A stretch of DNA of 64,000 nt, from assembly GCA_963716745.1 (NCBI GenBank), contig OY970320.1, positions 3,104,001 to 3,168,000 of the forward strand, given 5' to 3'. Below the pieces are notes generated by a model. That model did no database searches. It was not told where the DNA came from and saw only the letters and a list, made by a program, of their open reading frames with translations. This DNA comes from an uncultured Gemmatimonadaceae bacterium. Lineage in GTDB: Bacteria; Gemmatimonadota; Gemmatimonadetes; Gemmatimonadales; Gemmatimonadaceae. Shown here piece by piece: positions 42,845-64,000 of this stretch. A program made the position numbers and the translations under genes. Position 1 is the stretch's first letter. The number at the start of each line of letters is the position of its first letter.

Positions 42845-42906
42845 AAGTGCTCCTGGAGGAATGCCCTGCAACGTACGAGATTGCCGGAGGCAACTCCACA
42901 CACGCG

Positions 42907-45348
42907 ATGATTACAATTCTGCAAGACACGCGCTACGCCGCTCGCACGCTGCTCAAATCGCGGGGCTTCGCCGCCACGGCGATCCTGACGCTCGCGCTCG
43001 GCATCGGCGCGAACACCGCGCTCTTTTCCGTGGTGAATGGCGTGCTGCTCGATCCGCTCGCGTATCCCGACGCGGGGCAGCTCGCCGCGATCTACGGTGA
43101 TTCGCCCGGCTTCGCCAAGGCGCCCATCAACTATCTGAATTTCCTCGACTGGCAACGCGTGTCGCACGCGTTCTCGTCCATGGCGATGTACCGCAATCAG
43201 GACTACAACTTCACCGGCTCCGAGCAGGCCGAGCGGCTGAGCGGCTTCATGGTGTCCGCCGATTTCTTCCGCACGCTGGGCCAGGCGCCGGTGCTCGGGC
43301 GCGACTTCAACGCCGCCGACGATGTGCTCGGCGCGGCGCCGGTCGCGGTCCTGGGCGGCGGGTTCTGGCAGCGCCGGTTCGGTGGTTCGCCATCGGTGCT
43401 GGGAACGGTGATCACGCTCAACGGCACGCCGTACACGGTGGTCGGCGTGATGCCACCGGCTTTCACGTTCTACGGACCGCAGCGCGAGGTGTACACGCCC
43501 ATCGGTCAATGGGCCGACAAGAATTTCCGTGACCGGCGGGTGGATGTCAGCTCGCACGGCGTGGGGCGACTGAGAACGGGGGTGACGGTCGCGGCCGCGC
43601 GCGCCGAGATGGACGCGATCGCGCGCGATCTTGCTGCGCAGTACCCGGACGCGAACAAGAATGTTGGCATCACGATCCTTCCGATGAAGGAGGACATCGT
43701 GGGCAACGTGCAGCCCTTCCTGATCGTACTGCTCGGCGCCGTGGGGTTCCTGTTGCTCATCGCCTGCGCGAACGTCGCGAACCTTCTGCTCGCGCGTTCT
43801 CTCGCGCGGTCGCACGAGTTCGCTGTGCGCGCCGCGCTCGGTGCGAGCGCGCGCCGCGTGATCCAGCAGCTGCTCACCGAGAGCGTCCTGCTCGCGATGA
43901 GCGGCGGCGCGCTGGGGATGCTGCTTGCCTGGTGGGGCACGCGCGCGATCCTCACGCTGTTGCCCGCGTCGCTGCCGCGCTCCTCGGATGTCGCGCTCGA
44001 TGCGCGTGTCCTGCTGTTCACGCTCGGCGTGTCGCTGCTGGCCGGCGTGTTGTTCGGTCTCGTGCCGGCGATCAAGGCGTCACGATCGGATCTCAACGAG
44101 GTGCTCAAGGAATCGGGGCGGGGCGGGAGCGGCGCGCGCCACCGGCTGCAGCGCGTGTTCGTGGCGGCGGAGGTCGGGCTCGCCCTGGTGCTGCTCGTTG
44201 GCGCCGGACTCATGCTGCGCAGCTTGCAGGCGCTCTGGCGCGTGGACCCCGGTTTCGAGCCGGCGCACGCGATCACATTCTCGCTCTCGCTTCCGGCCAC
44301 GCCGAACACGACGAGTGCCGAGACACGCGCGCGACTGCGCAGGTTCGACGCGGCCATGCGCGACGTGCCGGGCGTTGATGCCGTGAGCGTCACCCTCGGC
44401 TCGCGACCGATGATCCACGACACCTCGCTGCCATTCTGGATCGAGGGCACGCCCACACCGGCCACGCAGCACGACATGCCGCAGGCGATGTTCTATCTCG
44501 TGGAGAGCGGTTTCCAGCAGGCGATGGGCGTGCATCTCGTGCGCGGACGGTTCGTGGCGCCGCAGGACGACGAACATTCCCCGCTGGTCGTGGACATCGA
44601 CACCGAGTTCGCACAACGATATTTCCCGAACGCCGATCCGATCGGGCAGCGCATCAATATCGGCGGCTTCGAAGTGCAGGCGCAGATCGTGGGCGTGGTG
44701 GGCCACATCAGACAATGGCGCCTGGATGGCGATCCGTCGTCGGCGGTGGAGGCACAGGTCTACTATCCGTTCATGCAACTCCCCGAGAAGATCATGCCGC
44801 TCGCGGCCAACGCGGTGGCGGTGGTGTTGCGTACGCGCGGCGATCCGGCGGCGGCGATGAACGCCGTGCGGAAAGCCGTGCATGCTGTGGAACCGGGCGG
44901 CGTGGTGTACGCCGCGCAAACGATGAACGACGTGATCGCGACCTCGTTCGCGGCGCGTCGCCTGTCGATGATCCTGCTCAGCGTGTTCGCGGCGCTCGCA
45001 CTCATGCTCGCATGCGTGGGGATCTACGGCGTGATCTCGTATCTCGTGGGCCAGCGAACGCGCGAGATTGGCGTACGGATCGCACTTGGCGCGCAGCGAC
45101 GGGAGGTCATGCGGCTCGTGCTCGGCGAGGGCGTTCGCATGGCGTTGGCCGGAGCGGCGATCGGCACTCTTGCGGCGCTGGCGCTGGCGCGGCTCATCGC
45201 CGCGCAACTGTTCGGAGTTTCCGCGCACGATCCGGTGACCTTTGTGGGCGTCGGCGTGCTGCTCGTGGTCGTCGCGATCGGGGCGTGCTACGTTCCGGCG
45301 CGGCGCGCCATGAGTGTGGATCCGGTGGAGGCGCTACGCCACGAGTAA
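42907..45348 (+). CDS. Duplicated ABC transporter permease (ADOP family)
   Basis: QDTRYAARTL, LGIGANTALFS, LLIACANVANL, REIGVRIALGA and VDPVEALR motifs. Confidence 0.92.
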   Translation: MITILQDTRYAARTLLKSRGFAATAILTLALGIGANTALFSVVNGVLLDPLAYPDAGQLAAIYGDSPGFAKAPINYLNFLDWQRVSHAFSSMAMYRNQDYNFTGSEQAERLSGFMVSADFFRTLGQAPVLGRDFNAADDVLGAAPVAVLGGGFWQRRFGGSPSVLGTVITLNGTPYTVVGVMPPAFTFYGPQREVYTPIGQWADKNFRDRRVDVSSHGVGRLRTGVTVAAARAEMDAIARDLAAQYPDANKNVGITILPMKEDIVGNVQPFLIVLLGAVGFLLLIACANVANLLLARSLARSHEFAVRAALGASARRVIQQLLTESVLLAMSGGALGMLLAWWGTRAILTLLPASLPRSSDVALDARVLLFTLGVSLLAGVLFGLVPAIKASRSDLNEVLKESGRGGSGARHRLQRVFVAAEVGLALVLLVGAGLMLRSLQALWRVDPGFEPAHAITFSLSLPATPNTTSAETRARLRRFDAAMRDVPGVDAVSVTLGSRPMIHDTSLPFWIEGTPTPATQHDMPQAMFYLVESGFQQAMGVHLVRGRFVAPQDDEHSPLVVDIDTEFAQRYFPNADPIGQRINIGGFEVQAQIVGVVGHIRQWRLDGDPSSAVEAQVYYPFMQLPEKIMPLAANAVAVVLRTRGDPAAAMNAVRKAVHAVEPGGVVYAAQTMNDVIATSFAARRLSMILLSVFAALALMLACVGIYGVISYLVGQRTREIGVRIALGAQRREVMRLVLGEGVRMALAGAAIGTLAALALARLIAAQLFGVSAHDPVTFVGVGVLLVVVAIGACYVPARRAMSVDPVEALRHE

Positions 45349-52893: not shown

Positions 52894-53427
52894 TCAACGT
52901 TCCTGCCGCACGATGCGTGTCGTCACCGAAAGCTGCCCCACATGACGCATCGCGTGCTCCGCCCCGTGCACGAGGCAGCCGATGACCGTTGACGGGAGCT
53001 GCGCCCTCCCCACGCCTCGAAAATCGCCGAGCGTGGAGACGTCGATCGTGCGGAGTTCGGCCACAGCGGCCTGAACTCGCGCGGTCAATACATCGAGCAC
53101 CCGCGCGACGTCGGCCGCGGCAAGCGGACCGCCTTCCGCACGGATCTCCGCGAATTGTTCTTCCGAGAGCGCGTTCCCACGGGCGTACGTGAACAACCGG
53201 TCGATGACTGCGGCAATGTGTCGCACGTGGAACGCCGCCGACGCCACTCCGCCGGGCCGCGCGTTCCACTCGGCCTCAGTCAGATCCTCGACGAGGCCGC
53301 GCACACTCTCGTCGACTTGAAGCAGGATGTGCGCAACGGGCTGCAAGACGGCGGGGACGCCCTCGACGGGACCGCGCTGCCACCATTCGGTAGTTGCCGT
53401 TCTCCCCGGCTTCGCCGGCTCGCTCAT
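52894..53427 (-). CDS. DinB-family protein
   Basis: SAAFHVRHI, DRLFTYA and HGAEHAMRHVGQ His triad. Confidence 0.85.
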   Translation of the reverse strand: MSEPAKPGRTATTEWWQRGPVEGVPAVLQPVAHILLQVDESVRGLVEDLTEAEWNARPGGVASAAFHVRHIAAVIDRLFTYARGNALSEEQFAEIRAEGGPLAAADVARVLDVLTARVQAAVAELRTIDVSTLGDFRGVGRAQLPSTVIGCLVHGAEHAMRHVGQLSVTTRIVRQER

Positions 53428-53693
53428 TTCTTGATCCGCCTCACGATCCATAGGAGCAAACAAGCCCCGATCACCGCGATGAGGATCTCGCCGATATACC
53501 CGGAGCCGTGGAGACCGATCAGGCCGAAGACGAAATTGCCGAGAAGCGCGCCGACCACGCCGACGAGGAGATCGCCGAGCAGCCCGAATCCGCTTCCCTT
53601 CATGATCTTGCCGGCGAGAAAGCCGGCGATGATGCCGACGATGACGATGTAGAGCAGCGTCTGTGCTTCGAAGCCTAGGTAGTAGTCGTGCAA
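53424..53693 (-). CDS. GlsB/YeaQ/YmgE stress-response membrane protein
   Basis: GIIAGFLAG.IM.G.G.G...DLLVGVVGALLG pattern. Confidence 0.85.
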   Translation of the reverse strand: MHDYYLGFEAQTLLYIVIVGIIAGFLAGKIMKGSGFGLLGDLLVGVVGALLGNFVFGLIGLHGSGYIGEILIAVIGACLLLWIVRRIKK

Positions 53694-53814
53694 TGGGCGC
53701 TCCGCCGATTCGGATCTGGATAATCATAGGGCTTTTCGGAGTGTGGCGCTGACGGCAGGAATGGGCGGCTGGCGATCGCCCGTCGTGACCCGGGTGACGT
53801 AGATGACAGCCAAA

Positions 53815-53884
53815 GAAAAAGCCCGCGCTCCCGCGCGGGCTTTGACTGAATGACGGTGGACGCAGTCGACGGCGAAGCGGTGTC
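53815..53884 (-). mobile_element. att-like site C (hairpin, TGACGG core, conserved arm)
   Basis: GAAAAAGCCCGC..CGCGCGGGCT, then TGACGG-TGGACGCAGTC..GCGAA; related to the tRNA-Ser 3' flank and to 59548-59618. Confidence 0.6.
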
Positions 53885-53896
53885 CCGCTCGTCGCG

Positions 53897-54505
53897 CTAG
53901 ATGCGGAGCGCGAGCACCATCAGCCCGACGGCGGCGATCCAGCTGCCGGCCACGCGTACGGCGATCCGTGTCCACCCCGCAGTGAGCCAGCGGACCGCGC
54001 TAATGGTGTAGGCGAGAACGAGCAGCCCGCCGATCGCGACGCCGGGGGCGAAGCGCCATATGGAGGCGCCGGCGCCGATCTCGCCACCGTTCGCGAAGCC
54101 AAGCGTGAGCCCCACGATCGCGGCGAGTGCCAGCAGCGCCGCGCGCGGCAGCGGCCACGCGCCGGCCACCAGCACGCCGAGCACCAGCATGGCGCCAAGC
54201 TCCAGTACTCCGAGGTCGGGCACGCGCCCGAGCGCGGCGCCGATCGCTGCGCCGGCGAGTAGCGCGAGCGGCGCGATGCCGAGCACGCGCACTGCTGCAT
54301 CGCGTCCCTGCTGCGCCGCGAGCATGCCGAGCGCGATGGTGGGGGTGAGCGTCTCCAGCGCGGAGAGCATGTGAAGCATGCCGCCGTAGAAATCGCCGGC
54401 GCCGGGAAATGCGTGCGCATGCGCCGTGGCTGGCAGAGCCGCCAAGAGCACCATCGCCGCGCGCACACTCCGCGCGGTTGGTCGCCAGTAGGCCGCGCGT
54501 CTCAC
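53897..54505 (-). CDS. HupE/UreJ family protein (divergent)
   Basis: AHAH...FYGGMLH, GFANG and RVAGSWIAA; GTG start overlapping the upstream stop. Confidence 0.75.
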   Translation of the reverse strand: MRRAAYWRPTARSVRAAMVLLAALPATAHAHAFPGAGDFYGGMLHMLSALETLTPTIALGMLAAQQGRDAAVRVLGIAPLALLAGAAIGAALGRVPDLGVLELGAMLVLGVLVAGAWPLPRAALLALAAIVGLTLGFANGGEIGAGASIWRFAPGVAIGGLLVLAYTISAVRWLTAGWTRIAVRVAGSWIAAVGLMVLALRI

Positions 54506-55092
54506 AGCGCGAGCACCAAGTAGTACACGCCGCCGGCGGCGATCGCCGCGCCGAGCGTGCGGAGCAATCGATCTCCCCATGACCAACGGTGCACGAGGGC
54601 GATCGCGATCCCGGTGACGTGCAGCAAGCCGGTGGCGAGCACGAATCCCAAGCCGTAGGCCAGCGGCGCCGCCGCCTTGGGCAGCTCGAGCCCATGCGCG
54701 TAGCCGTGAAAAATGGCGAAGATCCCGACGAGGATCGCCGCCGCCCACAGCGGCGGCTTGAGCGCGAAGAGGATCGCGGCGCCGAGGAGCAACGCCGACG
54801 CCGCCACGCCGATCTCCACGCCGGGGAGATACACGCCGCGAACACCGAGCGCGCCGCCTACGGACATCACGAGTGGGAACGTGACCGGCAGCAGCCAGAT
54901 GGCCGGCGCGCCGAGCTGCGAACCCCAAATGCCCACCGCGATCATCGCGAGCATGTGATCGGGCCCCGTGAGCGGATGCAGGAATCCGCTCGCGAATCCT
55001 GTCGCTACGCCGCCGGTGTGCGCGCTCGCCGGGGCCGCAGCCAGCGCGAGCGCCAGCAGCGCGAACGCGAGCACCGAGCCGCGCGGCCTCAC
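54502..55092 (-). CDS. HupE/UreJ family protein
   Basis: GFLHPLTGPDHMLAM, FHGYAHG and ATGLLH motifs. Confidence 0.9.
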   Translation of the reverse strand: MRPRGSVLAFALLALALAAAPASAHTGGVATGFASGFLHPLTGPDHMLAMIAVGIWGSQLGAPAIWLLPVTFPLVMSVGGALGVRGVYLPGVEIGVAASALLLGAAILFALKPPLWAAAILVGIFAIFHGYAHGLELPKAAAPLAYGLGFVLATGLLHVTGIAIALVHRWSWGDRLLRTLGAAIAAGGVYYLVLAL

Positions 55093-56114
55093 CAAAACCC
55101 CACGACCCGCTGAATGAACCAACTCGCCGCGATGATCCCAATGGCGTACGCCGGCACGGGGCGCGTCCATCGCGGCCACTTGATGGCGAGCGATCGCAGC
55201 GACCACACGAACGACAGGACCACCGTCACGAACACCAGTTGTCCGAGCTCCACGCCCACGTTGAACGTGAACAGCGCCAACGGAATGTCGCCGCGCGGAA
55301 GCCCGACGCGCGTGAGCGTACCGGCGAATCCGAAGCCGTGCAGCAGTCCGAAGGCGAATGCGATCACCCATGGATGGCGCTGCGCCAAGCCCACCTCGCC
55401 GCGCGCCTGCTTCGCCAGCTCGGTGGCGAGGAACACAATGCTGAGCGCGATCACCGCCTCGACCGGCGGTGGCGGAACGCGCACCAGTCCCAGCGCCGCC
55501 ACCGCGAGCGTGATGCTATGCGCCACGGTGAACGCCGTGATGGTCTTGAGCAGCGGGATCGCGCCGTGCACGAGCAGGAGCAGCCCGAGCACGAAGAGCA
55601 GGTGATCGATGCCGAAGAGGATGTGCTGCATGCCGTACTCGATGTACGTCGCCGACAGCTCGGCGAGCCCGCTCCGCGCCGCCACCACGAGATAGGGGCG
55701 CGACGGATGGACGAGCGTCACGAATCGCGTGCCGTCCTGGAACTCAATGCGCACCAGGACATCGGTGATCGTCATCGCGAGGCCGGGGAAGGCGATCCGC
55801 AATCCCTCGAGCGAACCGGTGGTCGACATCACCACCCATCGCGTGAGATACGAGTCGCCGAGGTCCTGCTCAATGGGCTGTGTCTCGTTGCGCAGCTGGG
55901 CGGGCAGCACCACTGCCACCGGCAGCCGCATTCCCGAGAGCTGCGGCGTGCGCCAGAGCACGGTGTAACGTCCAGGCGCCGTCTCCTTGATCTCGAGGTA
56001 CGCGGGCCGTGACTCGTGCGCATCGAGTGGGCGAGCGCCCACGAGCAGACCGATCGCGGTGAGCAACACCAGCGCGGCGAGGCGCGTGAACGCGCCGGAT
56101 GAGGAACGGATCAT
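55089..56114 (-). CDS. HupE/UreJ-2 family protein with a periplasmic N-terminal domain
   Basis: AHESRP, HILFGIDHLLF, TAFTVAHSITL, GLLHGFGFA and FNVGVELGQ motifs. Confidence 0.88.
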   Translation of the reverse strand: MIRSSSGAFTRLAALVLLTAIGLLVGARPLDAHESRPAYLEIKETAPGRYTVLWRTPQLSGMRLPVAVVLPAQLRNETQPIEQDLGDSYLTRWVVMSTTGSLEGLRIAFPGLAMTITDVLVRIEFQDGTRFVTLVHPSRPYLVVAARSGLAELSATYIEYGMQHILFGIDHLLFVLGLLLLVHGAIPLLKTITAFTVAHSITLAVAALGLVRVPPPPVEAVIALSIVFLATELAKQARGEVGLAQRHPWVIAFAFGLLHGFGFAGTLTRVGLPRGDIPLALFTFNVGVELGQLVFVTVVLSFVWSLRSLAIKWPRWTRPVPAYAIGIIAASWFIQRVVGFW

Positions 56115-57040
56115 GTGGGCGGCGGCCCCTCATCCAGCGCGCCGGCCGGGAGCCGGTAATGCTCCCATCCCGAAGGGAGCACTACCTCGTAGCGGGATCG
56201 CATTTCCTGATACAGCCGATCCCGGATCTTCGCCCGCTCCTCTGCCATGAACTGATCTCGCACGTCTGCGCCGGCCTCTTCGTACGTGGGGACGCGCCCC
56301 GCCGCGAGCGATTCGATGAACACGAGGTGCCAACCCAATCCGGACTCCACCGGGCCGCGCCACGCACCGGGCGCGAGCACGAAGAGGGAATCCGCGAAGT
56401 CGCGCCCGAAAACGCTGGCAACGTTCTGCGGCGTGCGGTCGGCGTAGTAGTCCTGCAGCGCGAACTGGTCGCCGAGCGCCGCGGCACCGCTCCAGCCCGC
56501 CGGCTTCCCCTTGAGCGTCGCGAGCGCCGCCGCCGCGTCAGCTCTTGCGTGTGCACGGCGCGCGTCCGGCGAGAAGTAGATGTGCCGGAAGGAGATGCGC
56601 GGCGGGAAAGCGAATTGCGCAGCGTGAGCCGCGAAGTACGCGCGCAGCGCCGAGTCGGTGGGGATTTCCAGCTTGGACAGATCCTCGGCCAGGAAATCCA
56701 TCTTCTGCACCATCCGGCGCTTGAGGATCTCGTCGCCCTGATCGAGGCCCAGCGCGATCGCTTCGCGATAGAGCACTTCCTCGCGCACGCGCTCGTCCAC
56801 GAGCGAGCGCATCTGTTCGGGCGTGGGAGCCGGGCGCCCTTCCGCCAAGAACGCGACGGTCATCTGGCGCAGGTCGTCGTTCGTGAGTTCGATGCGGCCG
56901 GTGCGGTGCGCGGCATCGCCCCGGTGCACGATCGCATACGCCGCGAAGACCACGAGCCCCCCGGCCAGGAAATGGACGAGGGGCTCGCGCGACCACTGTT
57001 TCGCGAGCTGCCGCAGCCGCGCGGCGCGTGTGCCGCTCAG
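56111..57040 (-). CDS. Parvulin/PpiC-type peptidyl-prolyl isomerase (start approximate)
   Basis: REPLVHF, EEVLYREAIALGLD, FRHIYFS and GPVESGLGWHLV motifs. Confidence 0.82.
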   Translation of the reverse strand: MSGTRAARLRQLAKQWSREPLVHFLAGGLVVFAAYAIVHRGDAAHRTGRIELTNDDLRQMTVAFLAEGRPAPTPEQMRSLVDERVREEVLYREAIALGLDQGDEILKRRMVQKMDFLAEDLSKLEIPTDSALRAYFAAHAAQFAFPPRISFRHIYFSPDARRAHARADAAAALATLKGKPAGWSGAAALGDQFALQDYYADRTPQNVASVFGRDFADSLFVLAPGAWRGPVESGLGWHLVFIESLAAGRVPTYEEAGADVRDQFMAEERAKIRDRLYQEMRSRYEVVLPSGWEHYRLPAGALDEGPPPT

Positions 57041-59349
57041 GGAGTCGCGCCCGCCGGCTTCCCCGCGGCGGCCTTCATCTTCGCCATCACCGATGGGGCG
57101 AGAAACTGCGGCTCGGCCACCACCTCGTAGTTGGCGTAGCCGAATTCGTTGCTGCGCGCGAGGTAGACCTTCTTGTCGAGCTTGTAGAGCGTGTACGAGA
57201 ATGGCGCGTTGCCGACCATGGTGTTGATCCGGCCATCCTTGATCTCGTAGTGCGCGCCGTCGCCGGCAGTGCCGCGCATCGTGACTTCGCCGAAATCGCT
57301 GGGCTGCGGCACCGCGGGATCGGCGAAGAAGATCATGAAGTTCCCATTCGGCGCCGCGCTCACTTGCACCACGCCGCCGGTGACGTCGTTCTTGATCCAC
57401 GTGGCCTTGTTCACGAACATCGCCGCGAGTTCGGCGTCCATCACCTGCGTGTAGCCCTTGGCCTTGAGATCGGCCACGCTCATCCCCGCGGCGGGGGCGG
57501 CCTTTCGCGCGTCGGTGCTCGGCGTGTACCAGATCGGGGAGCCCCACGCGCGCTCCTGCACTGTTGCCGCCACGATCTCGGGGGGCGCGATGCCGAGGTC
57601 TTTCGCCTGGATGGTGGTCCACCGCGGAGTGGGGATCTCGAGCACGCGGGCATAGTAGAATGCGTGAACGCCGGGCTCGAAGTTCGGATCGGTCCACACC
57701 GCCTTGAGCTCGACGTTGCCGATGGTGTTCGTATACGTGGCGTTCGCGATATCCACCGTGCTGCCCACCGGCCCCACGCGGCCGGTGAACTTGTTCGGCC
57801 TCCGATTACCCGACCACGCGACGTCGTAGATTCGTTCGAAGCTCTGGCCGCTCTTGGACCATCCTTTCACGATCTGTAGCCGGTCGAGATTGCCCGACGC
57901 CGGATCTTTCATGGCCCACACCATAATGGTGGGCGCCCTGCCGGCCATGGCGGGAAGATCGCTCCCCATGGGCACTCCCATCGTGTAGCCCTTGTCGGCC
58001 CAATCTCTCGCGCCGAGCATGGCGGCGGTGTACTTCCACCCGCCGAACATGCGGATCTTGATATGCGGACCGCTGGTGCCGAACGTCTCGCGGCGCTGCA
58101 TCGCGTCGAAGATCGACGCGCGCGTGTTCTCCTCCGCCCACACGCCCGCGATACCGCCGGGGTTCATGTAGCGCACGTCCATCCCGCCGAAGTAGAAGCC
58201 TGCCATGCGCGTCTCGGGCGTCCCATTGAGACCGGCATGTCCGCCGAAGAAGTTCGATTGGCGATATGGCGACGCGCTGTTGTGCGAGTCGGACCCGGCG
58301 GTGAATCCGGTCTTGTACGGATTGAACCCCCAGACGTCCTGCATCGTGATGCCATCCTTCAGCGCCTGGCGCACGTAGCTGCCCGGGATAGCGGGCACCC
58401 CCTGCGGGGTGGCGATGAGCCAACTCATGATCTCGTAGTTCGCGAACTCGTCGTTCGGCGAGAGCAGCGGATGGGCTTCCGATTGCCCCTTGATCTGCTT
58501 GATCTCGATCAGCCGCTCATTGCGCTCACGCGAGGCGGCCCACGCCGCGTCGATGGGACGTCCCTTCTCGTCCACATCGATCGGATACATATGGCCGTCG
58601 GACAGATTGGCGTTGTGCGAAATGGCGAGCAACTCGTTCCCTTGGCTGCGCTGGCCGTCCATCCAGTTCCAGAGATCGGAGGGATCCTGCGAATCGAGCG
58701 CACTGAACGGTTGCGCTGGCAGCTTCGCGCAATCCCGGAAGAAGACATTGCGGTGCATGTTGCGGGCCTGCGGCGCCGAGGTCCACTCGTAGGAGCAGAA
58801 GGCGGTGAACTTGCCGGGCTTGTTGGCGGCATTGGCGGCGGCGTTGTTGGCCTGCCACACCGTGCCGGCCACCTCCGGCGACACGAGCGACTTGATCGGC
58901 TTGTTCTCTATCATCGTCGTGCCGAGCATGAGATAGATGCGCGCCACATTGTCCGGGGTCCGCACCTTGAGCGATTCCGCCACCGGCAGCTTGCTGATGG
59001 CGGACGATGGATCGTTCGCCAGCCGCACAACTCCGGCGTACTCGGCGTGGTCGGTGACGCCCATCCAGTCCAGCGGCGTCTCGATCTTGATCATGAAGCC
59101 GAGCGGGTGCTTGATGGCTTTCCCTTGCGCGTACTCGTAGGCCTCCGCAGGACCGGTGATGCGGTTGCCGAACACATACGCGTCGAAGGACCAGCTCGTA
59201 TGCAGGTGGGTTTCGCCGAAGTAGGGGTTGCGATGCGGTACCTTCGCGGCCGCCGGCTTGGCGGGCGGGTTCGCCTGCGCGAACGATGTGACCGCGCCGA
59301 GCGCGAGCGCGAGCGATGCGGCAGTGATGCGGCGACGAATGCGTGGCAT
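57037..59349 (-). CDS. DUF3604 domain secreted protein (PHP-like metal-binding motifs)
   Basis: GETHLHTSWSFDAY, PLDW..VTDHAEY, MHRNV, HNANLSDG, SDSH and QERAWGSPIWY motifs. Confidence 0.85.
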   Translation of the reverse strand: MPRIRRRITAASLALALGAVTSFAQANPPAKPAAAKVPHRNPYFGETHLHTSWSFDAYVFGNRITGPAEAYEYAQGKAIKHPLGFMIKIETPLDWMGVTDHAEYAGVVRLANDPSSAISKLPVAESLKVRTPDNVARIYLMLGTTMIENKPIKSLVSPEVAGTVWQANNAAANAANKPGKFTAFCSYEWTSAPQARNMHRNVFFRDCAKLPAQPFSALDSQDPSDLWNWMDGQRSQGNELLAISHNANLSDGHMYPIDVDEKGRPIDAAWAASRERNERLIEIKQIKGQSEAHPLLSPNDEFANYEIMSWLIATPQGVPAIPGSYVRQALKDGITMQDVWGFNPYKTGFTAGSDSHNSASPYRQSNFFGGHAGLNGTPETRMAGFYFGGMDVRYMNPGGIAGVWAEENTRASIFDAMQRRETFGTSGPHIKIRMFGGWKYTAAMLGARDWADKGYTMGVPMGSDLPAMAGRAPTIMVWAMKDPASGNLDRLQIVKGWSKSGQSFERIYDVAWSGNRRPNKFTGRVGPVGSTVDIANATYTNTIGNVELKAVWTDPNFEPGVHAFYYARVLEIPTPRWTTIQAKDLGIAPPEIVAATVQERAWGSPIWYTPSTDARKAAPAAGMSVADLKAKGYTQVMDAELAAMFVNKATWIKNDVTGGVVQVSAAPNGNFMIFFADPAVPQPSDFGEVTMRGTAGDGAHYEIKDGRINTMVGNAPFSYTLYKLDKKVYLARSNEFGYANYEVVAEPQFLAPSVMAKMKAAAGKPAGATP

Positions 59350-59547
59350 GCGTGGGGCTCCAGCGCTGAGGCGTGCGGTTCGTGGGACAGCGCGAGTTGC
59401 CGTATGCCGAGAATGTGGGTCACGGCGTGCGGGCGTGCAATGGGGAGTAGGGAGCGGGGCGAGGTCGCCGCCGCTCGGCGCGCCGCGGCGCGCTATCGCG
59501 GAGCTAAGGGCGGGGGGGGCGTGCACAATTGCACGGCAAGCACGAAA

Positions 59548-59660
59548 GAAAAAGCCCGCACTTCGCGCGGGATTTTTTTCGTTGTGACGGTGAAAGGAGT
59601 CCGGGCCGACCCCGTCTCAAGCGCGAATTCCCATCATTACGGAATTCATCAGGGAGTTTC
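59548..59660 (-). mobile_element. att-like site B (hairpin, TGACGG core, conserved arm)
   Basis: GAAAAAGCCCGCACTTCGCGCGGG, then TGACGG-TGAAAGGAGTC...CGA..GTCTC and a GAATTCCC/GGAATTC/CAGGGAG tract. Confidence 0.6.
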
Positions 59661-59817
59661 CTAGGAATGTGCACGGACTCATGCGAGGAGGCTGCTGATT
59701 CTTGGGGACTCGCCTCGCACGCACGAATCGTTGGCCGCTGACCAGGGAATGGTAGGTCGTGTGAATAGACAATGGTGGCCGCGGAGCAGGGATCGCGGCC
59801 TCTTCATTTTGCGCGCC

Positions 59818-62265
59818 TTACTCAGCCCGGATCGCTTCCAGCGGATCGATACGCATTGCGCGAGCGGCAGGCGCGGCAGTGGCGACGAGTCCAACGGCGA
59901 GCAGTCCCGCCGCGACTGCCACGAGCGTGACAGGATCATCCGGTCCGATGCCGAATAGCACGCTCGCCAAGAGCCGATTCGCGGCGAGGGCGAGACCGGC
60001 GCCGAGCGCGAGGCCGGCGCTCACCGGCACGAGGCTCTGCCGCACGACGAGTCCCGCCACCGCGCCATTCGGCGCCCCCAATGCCCGGCGGATCCCGATC
60101 TCGGGGGCGCGCCGCGCCACGTTATACGATGCCGCGCCGAAGATGCCGATCGCCGAGAGCGCGATCGCGAGGAGCCCGAATGCACCGAGTATGATGGCCC
60201 GGTCCCGCTCCGGTGCGACGGAATCAATGCGCACTTGGCCGAATGATCGGATCCGGAAAACCGGAGCGGTGTTGTCCAGTCCGTGTACGGATGCACGGAT
60301 CGTCGCCGCTATGCTCGTCTCGCTGGCGGAACCTCTCACGACAATGCTGAGGTATTCCGACGGCTGCTGTGCGAAGGGATAGTAGACCTGTGGCACCGGC
60401 CTACTCCTGAGCGAGAACGAGTGGATCGTGTGAACGACCCCGACGATCGTTCGCGGATCGCCCCCGACGGACACCGTCTCGCCGAGCGGATTCGCCCCGG
60501 CCCAGTAGCGCTTCGCCATCTCGTCGCTGATGATCGCGACGGAGGGTGCGCCCATCCCATCCCGCTCATCGAAGTCGCGTCCGCGAACGAGCGCGAGTCC
60601 CATGGTTCGAAAGTAGCCTGGCGAGATCGGCTCGAGATCGGCGAAAAGATCCTGCAGTTCCGCCGCCGGAACGGTCGAGCCGCTGATCTGTGCTTGGATC
60701 ATGAGTGACGCTTGACCACCCAACGGGAGATTGCTCACCAATCCCGCCGAAGTGACTCCCGGCGTCCGTCGGATCCTGGCAAGGATGTCGTTCGCGAATG
60801 CCGCGCGCAGCGCCACCGTCGGATACTTCACGGGCGACATGCTGATCTCGGCTGTGACAACGCTCGCGGGCAGCACGCGATCTTGATCGAGCATTCTTGA
60901 AAGGCTCTGGATCACGAGCACGGCGCCGGTCAAAAGGACGAAGCAGAGCGCGACCTGCGCCGTGAGAACGACTTGACGCGTCCTGAGCCCCATTCGAGAA
61001 AGCCCAGCCCGAGCGGCGCCTGGAATACCCTGCGCCTGGCGGCGCAAGATCCCGGCCGCGATCGCTCCCGCAACGAGGCCGGAGAACAGCGAGATCCCCA
61101 GTGTAATGGCATACGCCCGCACGCCGAGTTGTACGTCGCCGAGATCTGAATGTTCAACGACCCCCGAGGCGACCAGGCTGCGCGCGCAAATGAGAGCGAT
61201 CACGAGCCCGGCCAGCCCCCCGAACAGCGACAAGACGAGCGGCTCCGCCATCAGCTGCGCTCTGAATCCGGGCCGGCGTGCCGCCGAGTGCGATGCGAAC
61301 TCTCATCTCGTCCAGGCGCGAACTCGCGCGCGCGAGGAGGAGGCTCGTCACGTTCGCCGTCGCGATCAGCAGAAGGAGACCGGCCATGGTCGCCAACAGG
61401 CGCAAGCTGTCCAACCGATCGTGAGAGAGACTGGAGCGAAGAAGGGTCACCAGCACTCGGGCATCGTACCTCGGCTTGGGGTTCATCAGCCCCGCAATTT
61501 GTGCGGCGAGGAGGTCGACCCGGCGCTGCGCTTGCTGCGATTGAACTCCGGGCCGCAGGCGCGCAACGATCGTCTCGAGGAGCGCGATCTTCAGGAAGCT
61601 TACCTGTGACGGGTCGAACGGCACCGACAGCGGGATCCAGGCCTCCGTCTCGCCGGGAAAGCGGAAGTCCCGGCGGCATGATGCCGACGACCGTGAACGA
61701 TCCGCCGCTCAGCTGGATCACGCTGCCGATAGTGCTCGTTGCGCCTCCGAAATCGCGCCGCCACAGCCCGTCACTGATCACGACGACGTTTCCGTGAATG
61801 CGGCACACGGTCTTCCGGCAGGAACGCGCGGCCGGCGGCGGGTGCGACCCCGAGCACCGAAAAGAAGCCTGGCGTCGCCAGAGTGATCTTGATCCGCTCG
61901 GCACCATCCGCAGACTGGAGATTGGCTGCGCCGGGGGCATATGAGGCGACGCTCTCGAACACATCGCTCTGCGCTTCCCAATCGAGGAGATCGGGAACTG
62001 ATCGCGAGGCGCGATCAGGGTCGCCCGAGCCGTTCGCATTCTCGAGCACCACGATCCGATCCGGTTGGCTCAGAGGCCCCGATTGAAAGAGGACCGTATC
62101 GGCAACGAGAAAGACTGCGACATTCGCGCCGATCCCGAGCGCGAGCGTGGCGATCGTCGCCAGCGCGAAGCCGGGCTGTCGCGCTAGGCGACGGGCGGAG
62201 TCATAGAGGTCGGAGACGAGTCCGCCCGGCAACTGCGGCCATGTCCAAGAAAACTTCCAGCTCAA
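59818..62265 (-). pseudogene. Duplicated ABC permease (ADOP family) broken into at least four frames
   Basis: RRLARQPGF/LGIGAN, TVVGIMP, LLIATANV and EIGIRRALGA segments lie in different frames (shifts near 61790, 61620, 61260); decay or sequencing error. Confidence 0.75.
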
Positions 62266-62912
62266 AGAAGCTCCCTACGGTGCGGACGCACGGATCGACG
62301 GGCGCGAGGTGCTGAGGTCTCTTCCACACGGATCGCCGCGGTCGCTAGTGGTCGCGAATCGAGAGGCCGGTCGCGGTGGAGGCGATCTCCACTCGGGCGC
62401 CGTCGGCCCAAAGGCGCGTCTGCTCGCGCCACGGCAGTGACGTCCAACTTTCCATCACCGAGCGCGCGGAAGTCGGCTGTCTTTATCCCGGGGCCGAGGA
62501 CTACGTTTGCGGGGGTCGATGCCTCGAGCCGTGCGTCGGTGGCCCATCCGCGCATTTCGCGGGGCGACCAGCCGCGCCTCACCGCCGGTGACATCGAGCG
62601 TAAAGCGGACGGGCGTGGCTGGGGTCGGTGGATTTGACGCGGACGGTCACTTGTTCGCCGATCGGCCGCGGCACTGGAGTGAAGCAACCGATCAAGAGGG
62701 TGCCGAGCAATACGCCGATGATGTGCGCGAATCTCTGAGGCACGGCTCACCTCCCGGTCGAGATGTCGATGGCGACGCCATAAGATTATGCAGTGCTCGC
62801 TCCGTCGTCGCAATGAACACATTCGAGAATGTCCGGTTCTTTGGGCCAAATTTGGATGCGGACTGTCGTTGGCGGAGGCTCGCTATTCCCCGCTTCCTTG
62901 ATGGGTCAATCA

Positions 62913-63357
62913 ATGTCGACTGCTCGCCATTTCCTGATCGCTTTTGCTCTGCTCGTGCCAGTTGCCGCTCTGCGGCCAGTGTCAGTGCGGAACCTCGCGA
63001 CATCGAACCTCCTGTGCAGCCGCGACCAATTCAACCGACGGCGTGGGGTACCATATTAAGGAGATTGTTTCAAGCACTGACACGGCAACGGCGCGCTACC
63101 GCGCACTCCTCGGCCTCCCGCAGATGGCGAAGACTGCGGTAACCGTTGACGTCGCGAGCTCGGATTGCGGCCGGCTCTTGACCGCGTATCAAGCCGCAGG
63201 CGGATACCCTGCCGCGCATGGGCAGCTTTTCGTGTGGCGGCTCGCGAATGGGATTTACTACGCCGCGTACGATCCATACGGCGTTCCCGGCACCAGAGCG
63301 GTGCTCTTCTTTCGAGCGGATTGGACCTTCCTCAGCATGATGCCGACCGACTACTGA
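62913..63357 (+). CDS. Small secreted hypothetical protein; apparent frameshift near 63025
   Basis: Signal peptide MSTARHFLIAFALLVPVAA in one frame; ARYRALLGLP...CGRLLTAY...FRADWTFL in the next. Confidence 0.45.
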
Positions 63358-63418
63358 GTATCGCGGGCATCCATACCTAAGTCGCCGCGGTCCCAGGGCG
63401 AAATCGATGGCCACCCAA

Positions 63419-63445
63419 GAAAAAGCCCGCACTTTCGCGCGGGCT
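63419..63445 (-). terminator. Intrinsic terminator downstream of tRNA-Ser (part of att-like site A)
   Basis: Minus strand AGCCCGCGCGAAAGTGCGGGCT followed by a T run. Confidence 0.7.
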
Positions 63446-63457
63446 CAGACTTCCTGA

Positions 63458-63548
63458 CGGAGCGGGAGGGATTCGAACCCTCGATAGAGGTTTAAGCCCC
63501 TATGCCGGTTTAGCAAACCGGTGCCTTCAGCCTCTCGGCCACCGCTCC
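63458..63548 (-). tRNA. tRNA-Ser(GCT)
   Basis: GGAGCGG/CCGCTCC acceptor stem, CCGGT-TTGCTAA-ACCGG anticodon arm, long variable arm, GGTTCGAATCC T-loop; followed by TCA rather than CCA. Confidence 0.96.
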
Positions 63549-63644
63549 TATGTGCCAGACGCTATACGCGCCTTTTTTTGTAGTTGCATGGCGTTGCCGA
63601 GCGGCGAAGTCTAGCCGCCCGACACCACTTGGGCAACGACTTAA

Positions 63645-64000
63645 CTACTTCCTCACGCACACCGTCAGCGTATGCGCCAGCCCGATATGGTCGGTCTCGC
63701 TGCTCGATCCGTAGCCCCGCGCGCTCGATACAATCGTGCATCACCTTCGAATGGTACAGCTGACTATTCCCATTGGCGATGCACGTGAAGTACAGCGAGA
63801 TCTGCTGCAGGCAGAACGCGGCGTTCTCGAAGAGCTGGCGGTCCCAGTACGTCTCGAGGATCAGCAGTTTCGCCTCTGCTGACATCGCATTCACTGTCTT
63901 CCGCAGGATGGAGACGATCTCATCCTCGGAGAAACAGTCGAGGAACTGGCTCATCCAGATCACGTCGTGGCCGGAGGGCAGGGCGCTGCTCTCCAAGAGT
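63645..64000 (-). CDS. SAM-dependent O-methyltransferase, C-terminal part (probable indel near 63700)
   Basis: DVIWMSQFLDCFSEDEI, ILETYWDRQ and SLYFTCIANGNS motifs. Confidence 0.75.

Follow-up and report, generated by a model that had tools for sequence, protein, structure and literature searches.

A tRNA-Ser(GCT) locus of an uncultured soil Gemmatimonadaceae bacterium was analyzed in a window of 64,000 bp, i.e., the whole stretch from position 3104001 to 3168000 of one 3,292,296-bp contig with a GC content of 67%. Three related and rare sites, each of which combines a terminator hairpin with the core TGACGG, were confirmed in this window at 53851, 59585, and 63455, where an earlier note on the same DNA had placed them, and they bound two blocks of DNA that do not encode a recombinase. 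With a probability of about one half, these sites are regarded as relic attachment sites of non-autonomous cassettes, for the movement of which a tyrosine recombinase would have acted in trans. Small cassettes of this kind would have piled up at the 3′ end of tRNA-Ser(GCT), and the locus would be the eroded remainder of that stack. The capture of cassettes proposed in the earlier note is partly supported by the sites, by the discreteness of the first block and by the absence of a recombinase gene, but not with regard to the serine enzyme and the single 3.9-kb cassette that it had suggested.

The cores are located at 53851-53856 (site 1), 59585-59590 (site 2), and 63455-63460 (site 3). TGACGG alone is common (0.3 per kb per strand). 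The hairpin motif of 12 and 8 nt, GAAAAAGCCCGC.{1,8}CGCGCGGG, has four matches in the whole genome, namely the three sites of the window and genome position 1602052 on the minus strand. Together with TGACGG 9-15 nt further on, it has three matches, all of them at the tRNA-Ser(GCT) locus, so that the motif is not common genome-wide, which the earlier note had named as a refutation. As a non-circular test, a hairpin profile was made from the sites of relatives only. It recovered site 3 (E 8e-17), site 1 (E 1.4e-16), and site 2 (E 2.3e-5) as well as the terminator of tRNA-Ser(TGA) (E 1.5e-11) and a copy at genome position 1602014-1602057 (E 2e-8). The hairpin family has these five members in 3.29 Mb, with the tRNA-Ser(TGA) member lying 23 kb from the tRNA-Ser(GCT) locus. 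A profile of the right arm, which was made without this genome, matches site 2 with an E-value of 2e-15; site 1 reaches only 0.055, yet this is the second-best match genome-wide and stands in register with the hairpin.

Read on the minus strand, each site consists of a GC-rich stem followed by TTTTTC, i.e., an intrinsic terminator, and all three are listed by the terminator scan, site 2 as terminator-like on the plus strand as well. Sites 1, 2, and 3 fold with -27, -18, and -26.2 kcal/mol (z -4.4, -2.8, and -3.4). A GC-rich stem-loop, a T-run, and a position downstream of a gene were found at all three. The minus-strand unit in front of the terminator is an operon (DUF3604, rotamase, three HupE/UreJ genes) at site 1, a MacB/FtsX-type permease gene at site 2 and the tRNA at site 3. 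Each block ends in a copy of the terminator that backs onto the next site or onto the tRNA, in keeping with the earlier note. The same hairpin with a similar left flank was found at tRNA-Ser(GCT) of G372, a genome of another genus, and the hairpin is also present at tRNA-Ser(TGA) of the genome studied here. It is the native terminator of tRNA-Ser(GCT), conserved in a second genus. As the tRNA gene spans 63458-63548, the core of site 3 contributes only CGG to it; the identity of site 3 with the tRNA 3′ end, assumed in the earlier note, is a real overlap, but one of three nucleotides of the core. The hairpin at 1602014-1602057 on the minus strand, which has its orthologue at L018 7551 and completes the family of five, terminates a protein gene converging on tRNA-Gln(CTG). 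This copy has the hairpin and CTTCCTGA and then diverges exactly where the tRNA would start.

The right arm of the sites is the first ~35 nt of a conserved module of ~240 bp, which also occurs in other genera and away from tRNAs. The shared right arm described earlier is thus real, but it is not just a short stretch. The module is previously undescribed and new in this analysis. It begins with (T/C)GACGG-TGG..GCAGTC...GGCGAA.CCGTCTC, continues with the palindrome AATTCCCTG-N3-CAGGGAATT and with ATCAGGGAATT, and comprises, after a GC-rich part of ~90 nt, a further three CAGGGAA(T/C) boxes; of the six CAGGGAAT boxes in the module, five are direct and one is inverted. The left boundary is sharp, since the similarity begins at TGACGG, CGACGG, or TGGCGG (11 aligned copies and further copies), and to the left lies either a terminator hairpin, that of tRNA-Ser or a different one, or unrelated sequence. 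The module of G414 has a tRNA-Ser-type hairpin upstream, and in G372 and G292 the hairpin in front of the module is that of another terminator, adjoining the upstream region of gltX. Repeated modules stand in direct tandem, with one or two copies per genome. Two copies were found in G117, and two in the same orientation, 31 kb apart, in G625, which belongs to another family of the same order.

A metagenome scan with the right-arm pattern yielded 14 loci, four of which are chance matches in coding sequences. The other ten represent six distinct sequences, and the hairpin is located upstream in three of these (L068, L071 type, L077) and absent in three (L069 type, L070, L075). Loci L064-L067 were rejected as chance matches with nothing beyond the pattern. 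Among sequenced genomes, the module model matched 2 of 151 family genomes, BLAST matches of at least 70 nt were obtained in 5 of 401 family genomes, and the core pattern was present in 2 of 401 genomes of the order (reversed control: 0). Any BLAST match at E ≤ 0.001 was found in 15 of the 401 family genomes, where nine of the other ten matches have 23-41 nt and were regarded as noise. A match in G162 was discarded, as nothing beyond the pattern was seen on inspection.

Several further assignments were tried and rejected. The right arm does not specifically resemble a decayed 3′ end of tRNA-Ser(GCT), as the score of 21 in local alignment lies among the 19-24 of unrelated tRNAs (51 tRNA/tmRNA genes). 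CAGGGA resembles the CsrA box, but a sponge of the CsrB/RsmZ type was dismissed because the genome has no CsrA gene (PF02599). A structured RNA was not accepted either, given the weak fold of 10 modules in RNAalifold without net covariation (-19.7 kcal/mol over 279 columns, covariation term +1.24), and a search of 53000-64000 with Rfam 15 gave only the tRNA above threshold and nothing of note on the module. A cluster of CAGGGAA at genome position 3290135-3290236 lacks the module core and was excluded. At the inner end of the module no consistent plus-strand terminator was found; the window copy alone has one (59777-59800), a hairpin with a CAGGGA box in the loop and a T-rich tail, which faces the 3′ end of the permease gene from the inner end of this decayed copy.

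The comparison with relatives for empty sites or other cargo, which the earlier note had proposed, revealed an insertion/deletion (indel) polymorphism at the sites. In two congeners, G004 and contig C20 of G002, the alignment to the window stops at 53859 and restarts at 59813 (identities 96-97% and 88-96%), and both hold one hybrid site, made up of the left arm and hairpin of site 1 and a right arm of the site-2 type. The break lies just after TGACGGTGG, and the DUF3604 block is absent at their locus, in line with its description as a discrete unit. DUF3604 was not found anywhere in G004 or G002, genomes that are 76 and 63% complete. The crossover of the empty site falls within the 8-nt TGACGGTG, outside the longer identical hairpin run GAAAGAAAAAGCCCGC. 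Contig C10 of G002 carries a different block, with the order hairpin, module (right arm), 2.07 kb, hairpin, and tRNA, where the window has hairpin and tRNA. Furthermore, a metagenome contig contains a patatin gene between two complete sites 2.1 kb apart. The contigs C9 and C10 of G002 (L015-L017) are short and ~92% identical to the tRNA-Ser region of C20; they represent extra natural variants of the locus and are probably derived from co-binned related populations.

G004 has an extra block of 2.1 kb adjoining the tRNA, which encodes one NHL-repeat protein and is edged by the hairpin and a 43-nt displaced tRNA 3′ fragment, a classical signature of an island. The ~3.9-kb segment of the window, read as one captured cassette in the earlier note, turned out to be composite, because its permease part stands at the same position in all three genomes (the window genome, G004, and G002), whereas the orphan-gene region adjoins tRNA-Ser(TGA) in G002-C20. 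The DUF3604 block is lineage-specific yet distal to the tRNA, and it would accordingly have entered at an internal site or been lost from the relatives. In soil-metagenome reads, five runs contain 5-24% of the sampled words, and no RNA run is listed among them; the contigs are short and of low depth, and none bridges a site. Among the listed read joints, whose sides of 21-32 nt make them unreliable, none is located at 53851, 59585, or 63455.

The module is always located at an edge of variable or low-GC DNA. In G372 and G292 the gltX flank and the module are common at 84% identity, and nothing is alike past the inner end of the module. In G625 the GC content falls from ~0.68 to 0.56 at the module. 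The low-GC region of this genome (contig C2, 9.8-59.7 kb; L123-L125) comprises ~50 kb with a GC content of 0.53-0.60 vs. 0.66-0.70 in the flank, and contains two co-oriented modules, a 220-aa tyrosine recombinase adjoining a cation-efflux gene, and cyclic-nucleotide signalling genes. The recombinase gene lies between the two modules, at 8 and 23 kb from them, and was not linked to the module because of these distances.

In addition, a second integrase-less block of 5.9 kb was identified behind tRNA-Ser(TGA) (genome 3184967-3190945; L115 17967 to L116 3945). CGACGG (3184967-72) marks its start together with a decayed module (3185068-3185212, E 9.5e-8), and hairpin and tRNA form its end. The flank common with G002 stops at 3184969, which is the start of the block, and the content differs from that of G002. 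The cargo consists of a LuxR-type response regulator, a DsbA-like fragment, and a broken FtsX permease, and no recombinase was found among the tested open reading frames (ORFs).

Neither block of the window encodes a recombinase domain, as the earlier note had read from the sequence, nor are transfer genes or a transposase present (Pfam search of nine ORFs). Matches to PF00589 were found genome-wide at 0.30, 0.51, 1.44, and 2.78 Mb only. The genome has XerD- and XerC-like genes, one integrase next to tRNA-Leu/Gly (0.51 Mb), and a gene for an integron integrase that is spread over several frames. The idea of a serine recombinase is unsupported, because PF00239, in a search without a separate query for the large-serine Recombinase domain, has no match in this genome, while 12 of the 14 genomes used as controls gave matches. 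Moreover, tyrosine recombinases are named as the only kind known to target tRNA genes (PMC4383910).

A small chromosomal integron is located at genome position 2775534-2779818 (L120 5534-9818), where intI in several frames (2775534-2776658) is followed by a stretch with a GC content of 0.55-0.61. Five canonical attC sites were identified in it at 2777320-2779818 by a strict scan and a profile from three family attC sites, and the same searches detected no attC-type site in the 64-kb window. The intI gene looks split in G002 and G004 too; it is intact in G372 and probably in G414. In the contigs C20 and C9 of G002 (L014 14247-14349, L015 7-109), a canonical attC with a small ORF was observed, flanked by the permease gene on one side and the hairpin of tRNA-Ser on the other, and the tRNA-Ser hotspot therefore also takes integron cassettes.

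A mechanism can be proposed for the origin of the stack. Each cassette would carry a composite site, which consists, from left to right, of ~25 nt, a duplicate of the terminator hairpin of tRNA-Ser, the crossover (T/C)GACGG, and an arm of ~240 bp. A circular cassette would recombine through this site with the tRNA end or with a resident copy, by conservative site-specific recombination at or beside (T/C)GACGG, which is the simplest explanation to suit all the observations, and would thus be inserted, after which its hairpin would terminate whatever lies upstream. Repeated insertion would build an array of direct repeats, in which internal junctions would be complete sites (site 2, L071, and contig C10 of G002), first insertions would give hybrid junctions with a foreign left flank (G372, L069, and L070), and the proximal end would be a junction of hairpin and tRNA. 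The recombinase would be encoded elsewhere, and the boxes are candidate protein-binding arm sites. Circular intermediates, the place of the crossover and the class of the enzyme are what we infer here. A tyrosine recombinase with arm-binding is suggested, since the boxes resemble arm-type protein sites and this family is known at tRNA genes.

A number of observations weigh against this interpretation. The mechanism is conjectural, because neither an autonomous parent element nor a circular junction nor the recombinase was found. The search for the parent included viral contigs, in which two module patterns had no match within the part of the public data that was searched, so that a viral origin of the module was rejected as well. 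Recombinase genes beside the same arm, for which the earlier note had proposed to look, were not detected either: PF00589 and PF00239 are absent from the tested ORFs around ~15 module or hairpin loci, although the filtering of these ORFs by length and third-position GC may have removed small or atypical genes, and the integrase matches of G002, G004, G372, G292, and G414 are on other contigs or far off. The repeated stretch is located downstream of the tRNA and not inside it, unlike in classical tRNA islands. An imperfect dyad CTTCC/GGAAG around TGACGGT is present in only 3 of 12 modules, and the core of a recombinase site is therefore not readable from the sequence. For the DUF3604 block, a gain and a loss in the two relatives both fit the data, and a deletion between direct hairpin repeats could imitate an empty site. 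Finally, both module copies of the window are decayed: that of site 2 has full length but retains only two CAGGGAAT-like boxes, and that of site 1 consists of only ~37 nt, recognized as a pattern match with two mismatches. Due to this decay, the cassette stack is probably frozen in this genome.

Some of these points would equally suit an explanation without any dedicated system, which is considered unlikely, although by no means far-fetched. The hairpins would then be duplicates of a useful terminator and the module a cis element (a small RNA, a 3′ untranslated region element, or an operator array), while the differences in cargo would go back to homologous or illegitimate recombination at repeats and to whole-allele exchange through flanking genes. 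This agrees with the hairpin being the native tRNA-Ser terminator, which at 1602014-1602057 also ends an ordinary protein gene and is conserved there in G002, with the missing link to a recombinase, and with the other terminator hairpin that abuts the module at the same place in G372 and G292, as if an RNA ended there. The ends of tRNA-Ser(GCT) and tRNA-Ser(TGA) share ~70 nt, and this homology could shift the orphan gene. However, the crossover of the empty site lies in eight nucleotides and not in the longer hairpin run, and the same junction recurs in independent indels. The weak consensus fold of the modules and the lack of an Rfam match do not point to an RNA, the patchy and rare distribution is unlike that of a housekeeping element, and in G625 the module marks a break in GC content. 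A mere chance likeness of three GC-rich terminators deserves almost no credence. Terminators of the AAAAAGCCCGC...GCGGGC type do occur in unrelated phyla, and 31 of 44 loci of a pattern scan came from other lineages, but only five family members exist in 3.29 Mb, three of them within 9.7 kb on one strand. The likeness of these members extends beyond the stem into the left and right flanks, and both the rarity of the motif and the matches of the relatives-only profile contradict chance.

Two further explanations involve known kinds of mobile DNA. In the first, the module would form a terminus of a DDE-type transposon (Tn7-, Mu-, or Tn402-like), which would home to the space separating an RNA gene from its terminator; a transposase would then bind to the CAGGGAAT boxes, and the 5′-TG start would be the tip of the transposon. 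Most module copies do begin with TG, several boxes of the same sense are spread over ~200 bp, and rve-family genes lie 0.5 and 3.8 kb from two of the ~15 module loci. These two proteins are just 22% identical to each other and were treated as incidental, though, and some copies start with CGACGG. Furthermore, instead of inverted terminal repeats with boxes at both ends, the blocks have boxes at one end only and a hairpin, without an inverted module, at the other, no transposase is encoded in the blocks, and no TnsABC-like set was seen among the ORFs scanned. Such a transposon is very unlikely. Movement of the blocks by an integron integrase, with hairpin, core, and module as a non-canonical site, is highly improbable. 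An IntI-type gene (in several frames) and five canonical attC sites exist in this genome, IntI is intact in G372, and a canonical attC cassette is located inside the tRNA-Ser locus of G002. Against this, the window lacks an attC-type site, the hairpin and module profiles match nothing in integron regions, the sites have no RYYYAAC...GTTRRRY pair, and the integrons of the family use ordinary attC.

The cassette interpretation finds parallels in several described systems. Cis-mobilizable elements (CIMEs) are described as products of decay, which lost integration and transfer genes and kept both attachment sites (PMC5704250), and the blocks of the window likewise are flanked by a related site on either side and encode neither a recombinase nor transfer functions. 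The tandem accretion of such elements (ICESt1/ICESt3, Streptococcus thermophilus) resembles the locus in that the elements are lined up in the same direction at a target gene's 3′ end, have no integration or transfer genes of their own and could be moved by an enzyme in trans. It differs in that no related autonomous integrative and conjugative or integrative and mobilizable element is known here and that the blocks comprise 2-6 kb with one gene or operon (PMC5704250). The tycheposons of Prochlorococcus, in which later integrations push older elements away from the tRNA, share the tRNA docks including tRNA-Ser(TGA), integrase-less remnants, and small cargo modules. They are bounded by partial tRNA copies, many with an own tyrosine recombinase, whereas the sites of the window repeat only 3 nt of the tRNA and an element with its own recombinase was not found here (bioRxiv 10.1101/2020.12.28.424599). 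The tRNA islands detected by Islander are alike in having an intact tRNA at one end and a direct-repeat site at the other and in their possible tandem arrays, but they require a tRNA fragment and an integrase gene, and both blocks of the window are without either (PMC4383910). What is repeated at sites 1 and 2 is the terminator, with no more than CGG from the tRNA itself, and a displaced tRNA fragment was found only at the extra block of G004. A unit mobilized in trans is reported for GIsul2, the integrase of which moves the integrase-less CR2-sul2 unit; there the helper island is known, and here none is (PMC9376610).

Like the locus, integron arrays consist of promoter-poor or small co-oriented units with a site at the 3′ side of the gene and an integrase outside the cassettes; the sites here are not attC, however, the dock is formed by tRNA-Ser ends and not by attI, and the blocks can be whole operons. 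Similar features are found in pdif (dif-like) modules, where integrase-less cargo with short bounding sites is moved by XerC/XerD. The dif-like site has 28 bp, with two 11-bp arms and a 6-bp spacer. Integrase-less cargo, short sites, and the use of housekeeping recombinases would be the shared traits, and no 11-6-11 site was evident by eye at the borders, for which no dif model was run. A limited check of the literature found no description of such sites in Gemmatimonadota.

It is unlikely that the Gemmatimonadales possess an undescribed cassette system of their own, in which a recombinase from elsewhere in the chromosome would shuffle small units, each with a ~320-bp composite site (terminator mimic, crossover, and arm with six CAGGGAAT boxes), both into one another and into the 3′ ends of tRNA-Ser genes. 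If they do, this system would functionally correspond to integron cassettes or pdif modules, but use another site and another dock. If the cassette interpretation preferred above is right, the combination of hairpin, core, and boxed module would be a searchable signature for the swapping of genes and operons without self-mobile elements in a little-studied soil phylum, and the cargo seen so far comprises metal-handling, stress, permease, and regulator genes. The homology used for docking at the tRNA would lie in the terminator and not in the tRNA, and island finders based on fragments or integrases would miss such loci. If no dedicated system exists, the module is still a conserved and unannotated 240-bp element of the Gemmatimonadales that needs a function.

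The features of the locus are compiled in Table 1.

Table 1. Predicted features of the tRNA-Ser(GCT) locus (window positions).
Feature	Position	Strand	Evidence or remark
Site 1, left arm and terminator hairpin	53790..53850	.	Stem-loop 53818-53843; orthologue of the single site of the relatives
Site 1, core TGACGG and ~37-nt relic of module start	53851..53887	+	Stop of HupE-type gene directly after
HupE/UreJ	53900-54469	-	Pfam
HupE/UreJ	54505-55110	-	Pfam
HupE_UreJ_2	55092-56114	-	Pfam
PPIC-type rotamase	56114-57130 (ORF to 57697)	-	Pfam
DUF3604	57040-59349	-	Pfam
Site 2, hairpin	59541..59584 (stem-loop 59555-59571)	.	A-run on one side, T-run on the other; terminator-like on both strands
Site 2, core TGACGG and decayed full-length module	59585..59823	+	Module profile E 1.4e-49
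MacB/FtsX-type (duplicated orphan permease-like) gene, split in three frames	59821..62265	-	Pfam
Orphan ORF, 137 aa, without Pfam family	62944..63354	+	Pfam search
Site 3, left arm, native terminator hairpin and core	63394..63460	.	Hairpin 63423-63446; core overlaps the tRNA by 3 nt
tRNA-Ser(GCT)	63458-63548	-	Rfam tRNA match, 59.2 bits

The cargo of the first block (53900..59349) is a minus-strand operon coding for DUF3604, a PPIC-type rotamase, and three HupE/UreJ proteins. DUF3604 is present in 2 of 151 family genomes, where the other copy is just 42% identical; the closest database match is 71% identical, and the named matches at 63-65% are proteobacterial. Because of this scarcity in the family and the proteobacterial origin of the named matches, the cargo looks acquired.

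In the second block, contigs from soil metagenomes lack one base compared to the window at each of the positions 61265, 61797, 63005, and 63701, and dropping the base at 61265 extends the longest frame of the permease from 494 to 629 aa. The broken state of the permease gene, and perhaps also the split of intI, may partly be due to indels of the assembly. A further broken copy of a MacB/FtsX-type permease lies inside the tRNA-Ser(TGA) block, and an intact duplicated permease of this type with 833 aa is encoded at 42847-45345 on the plus strand, 15 kb from the broken one of the window.

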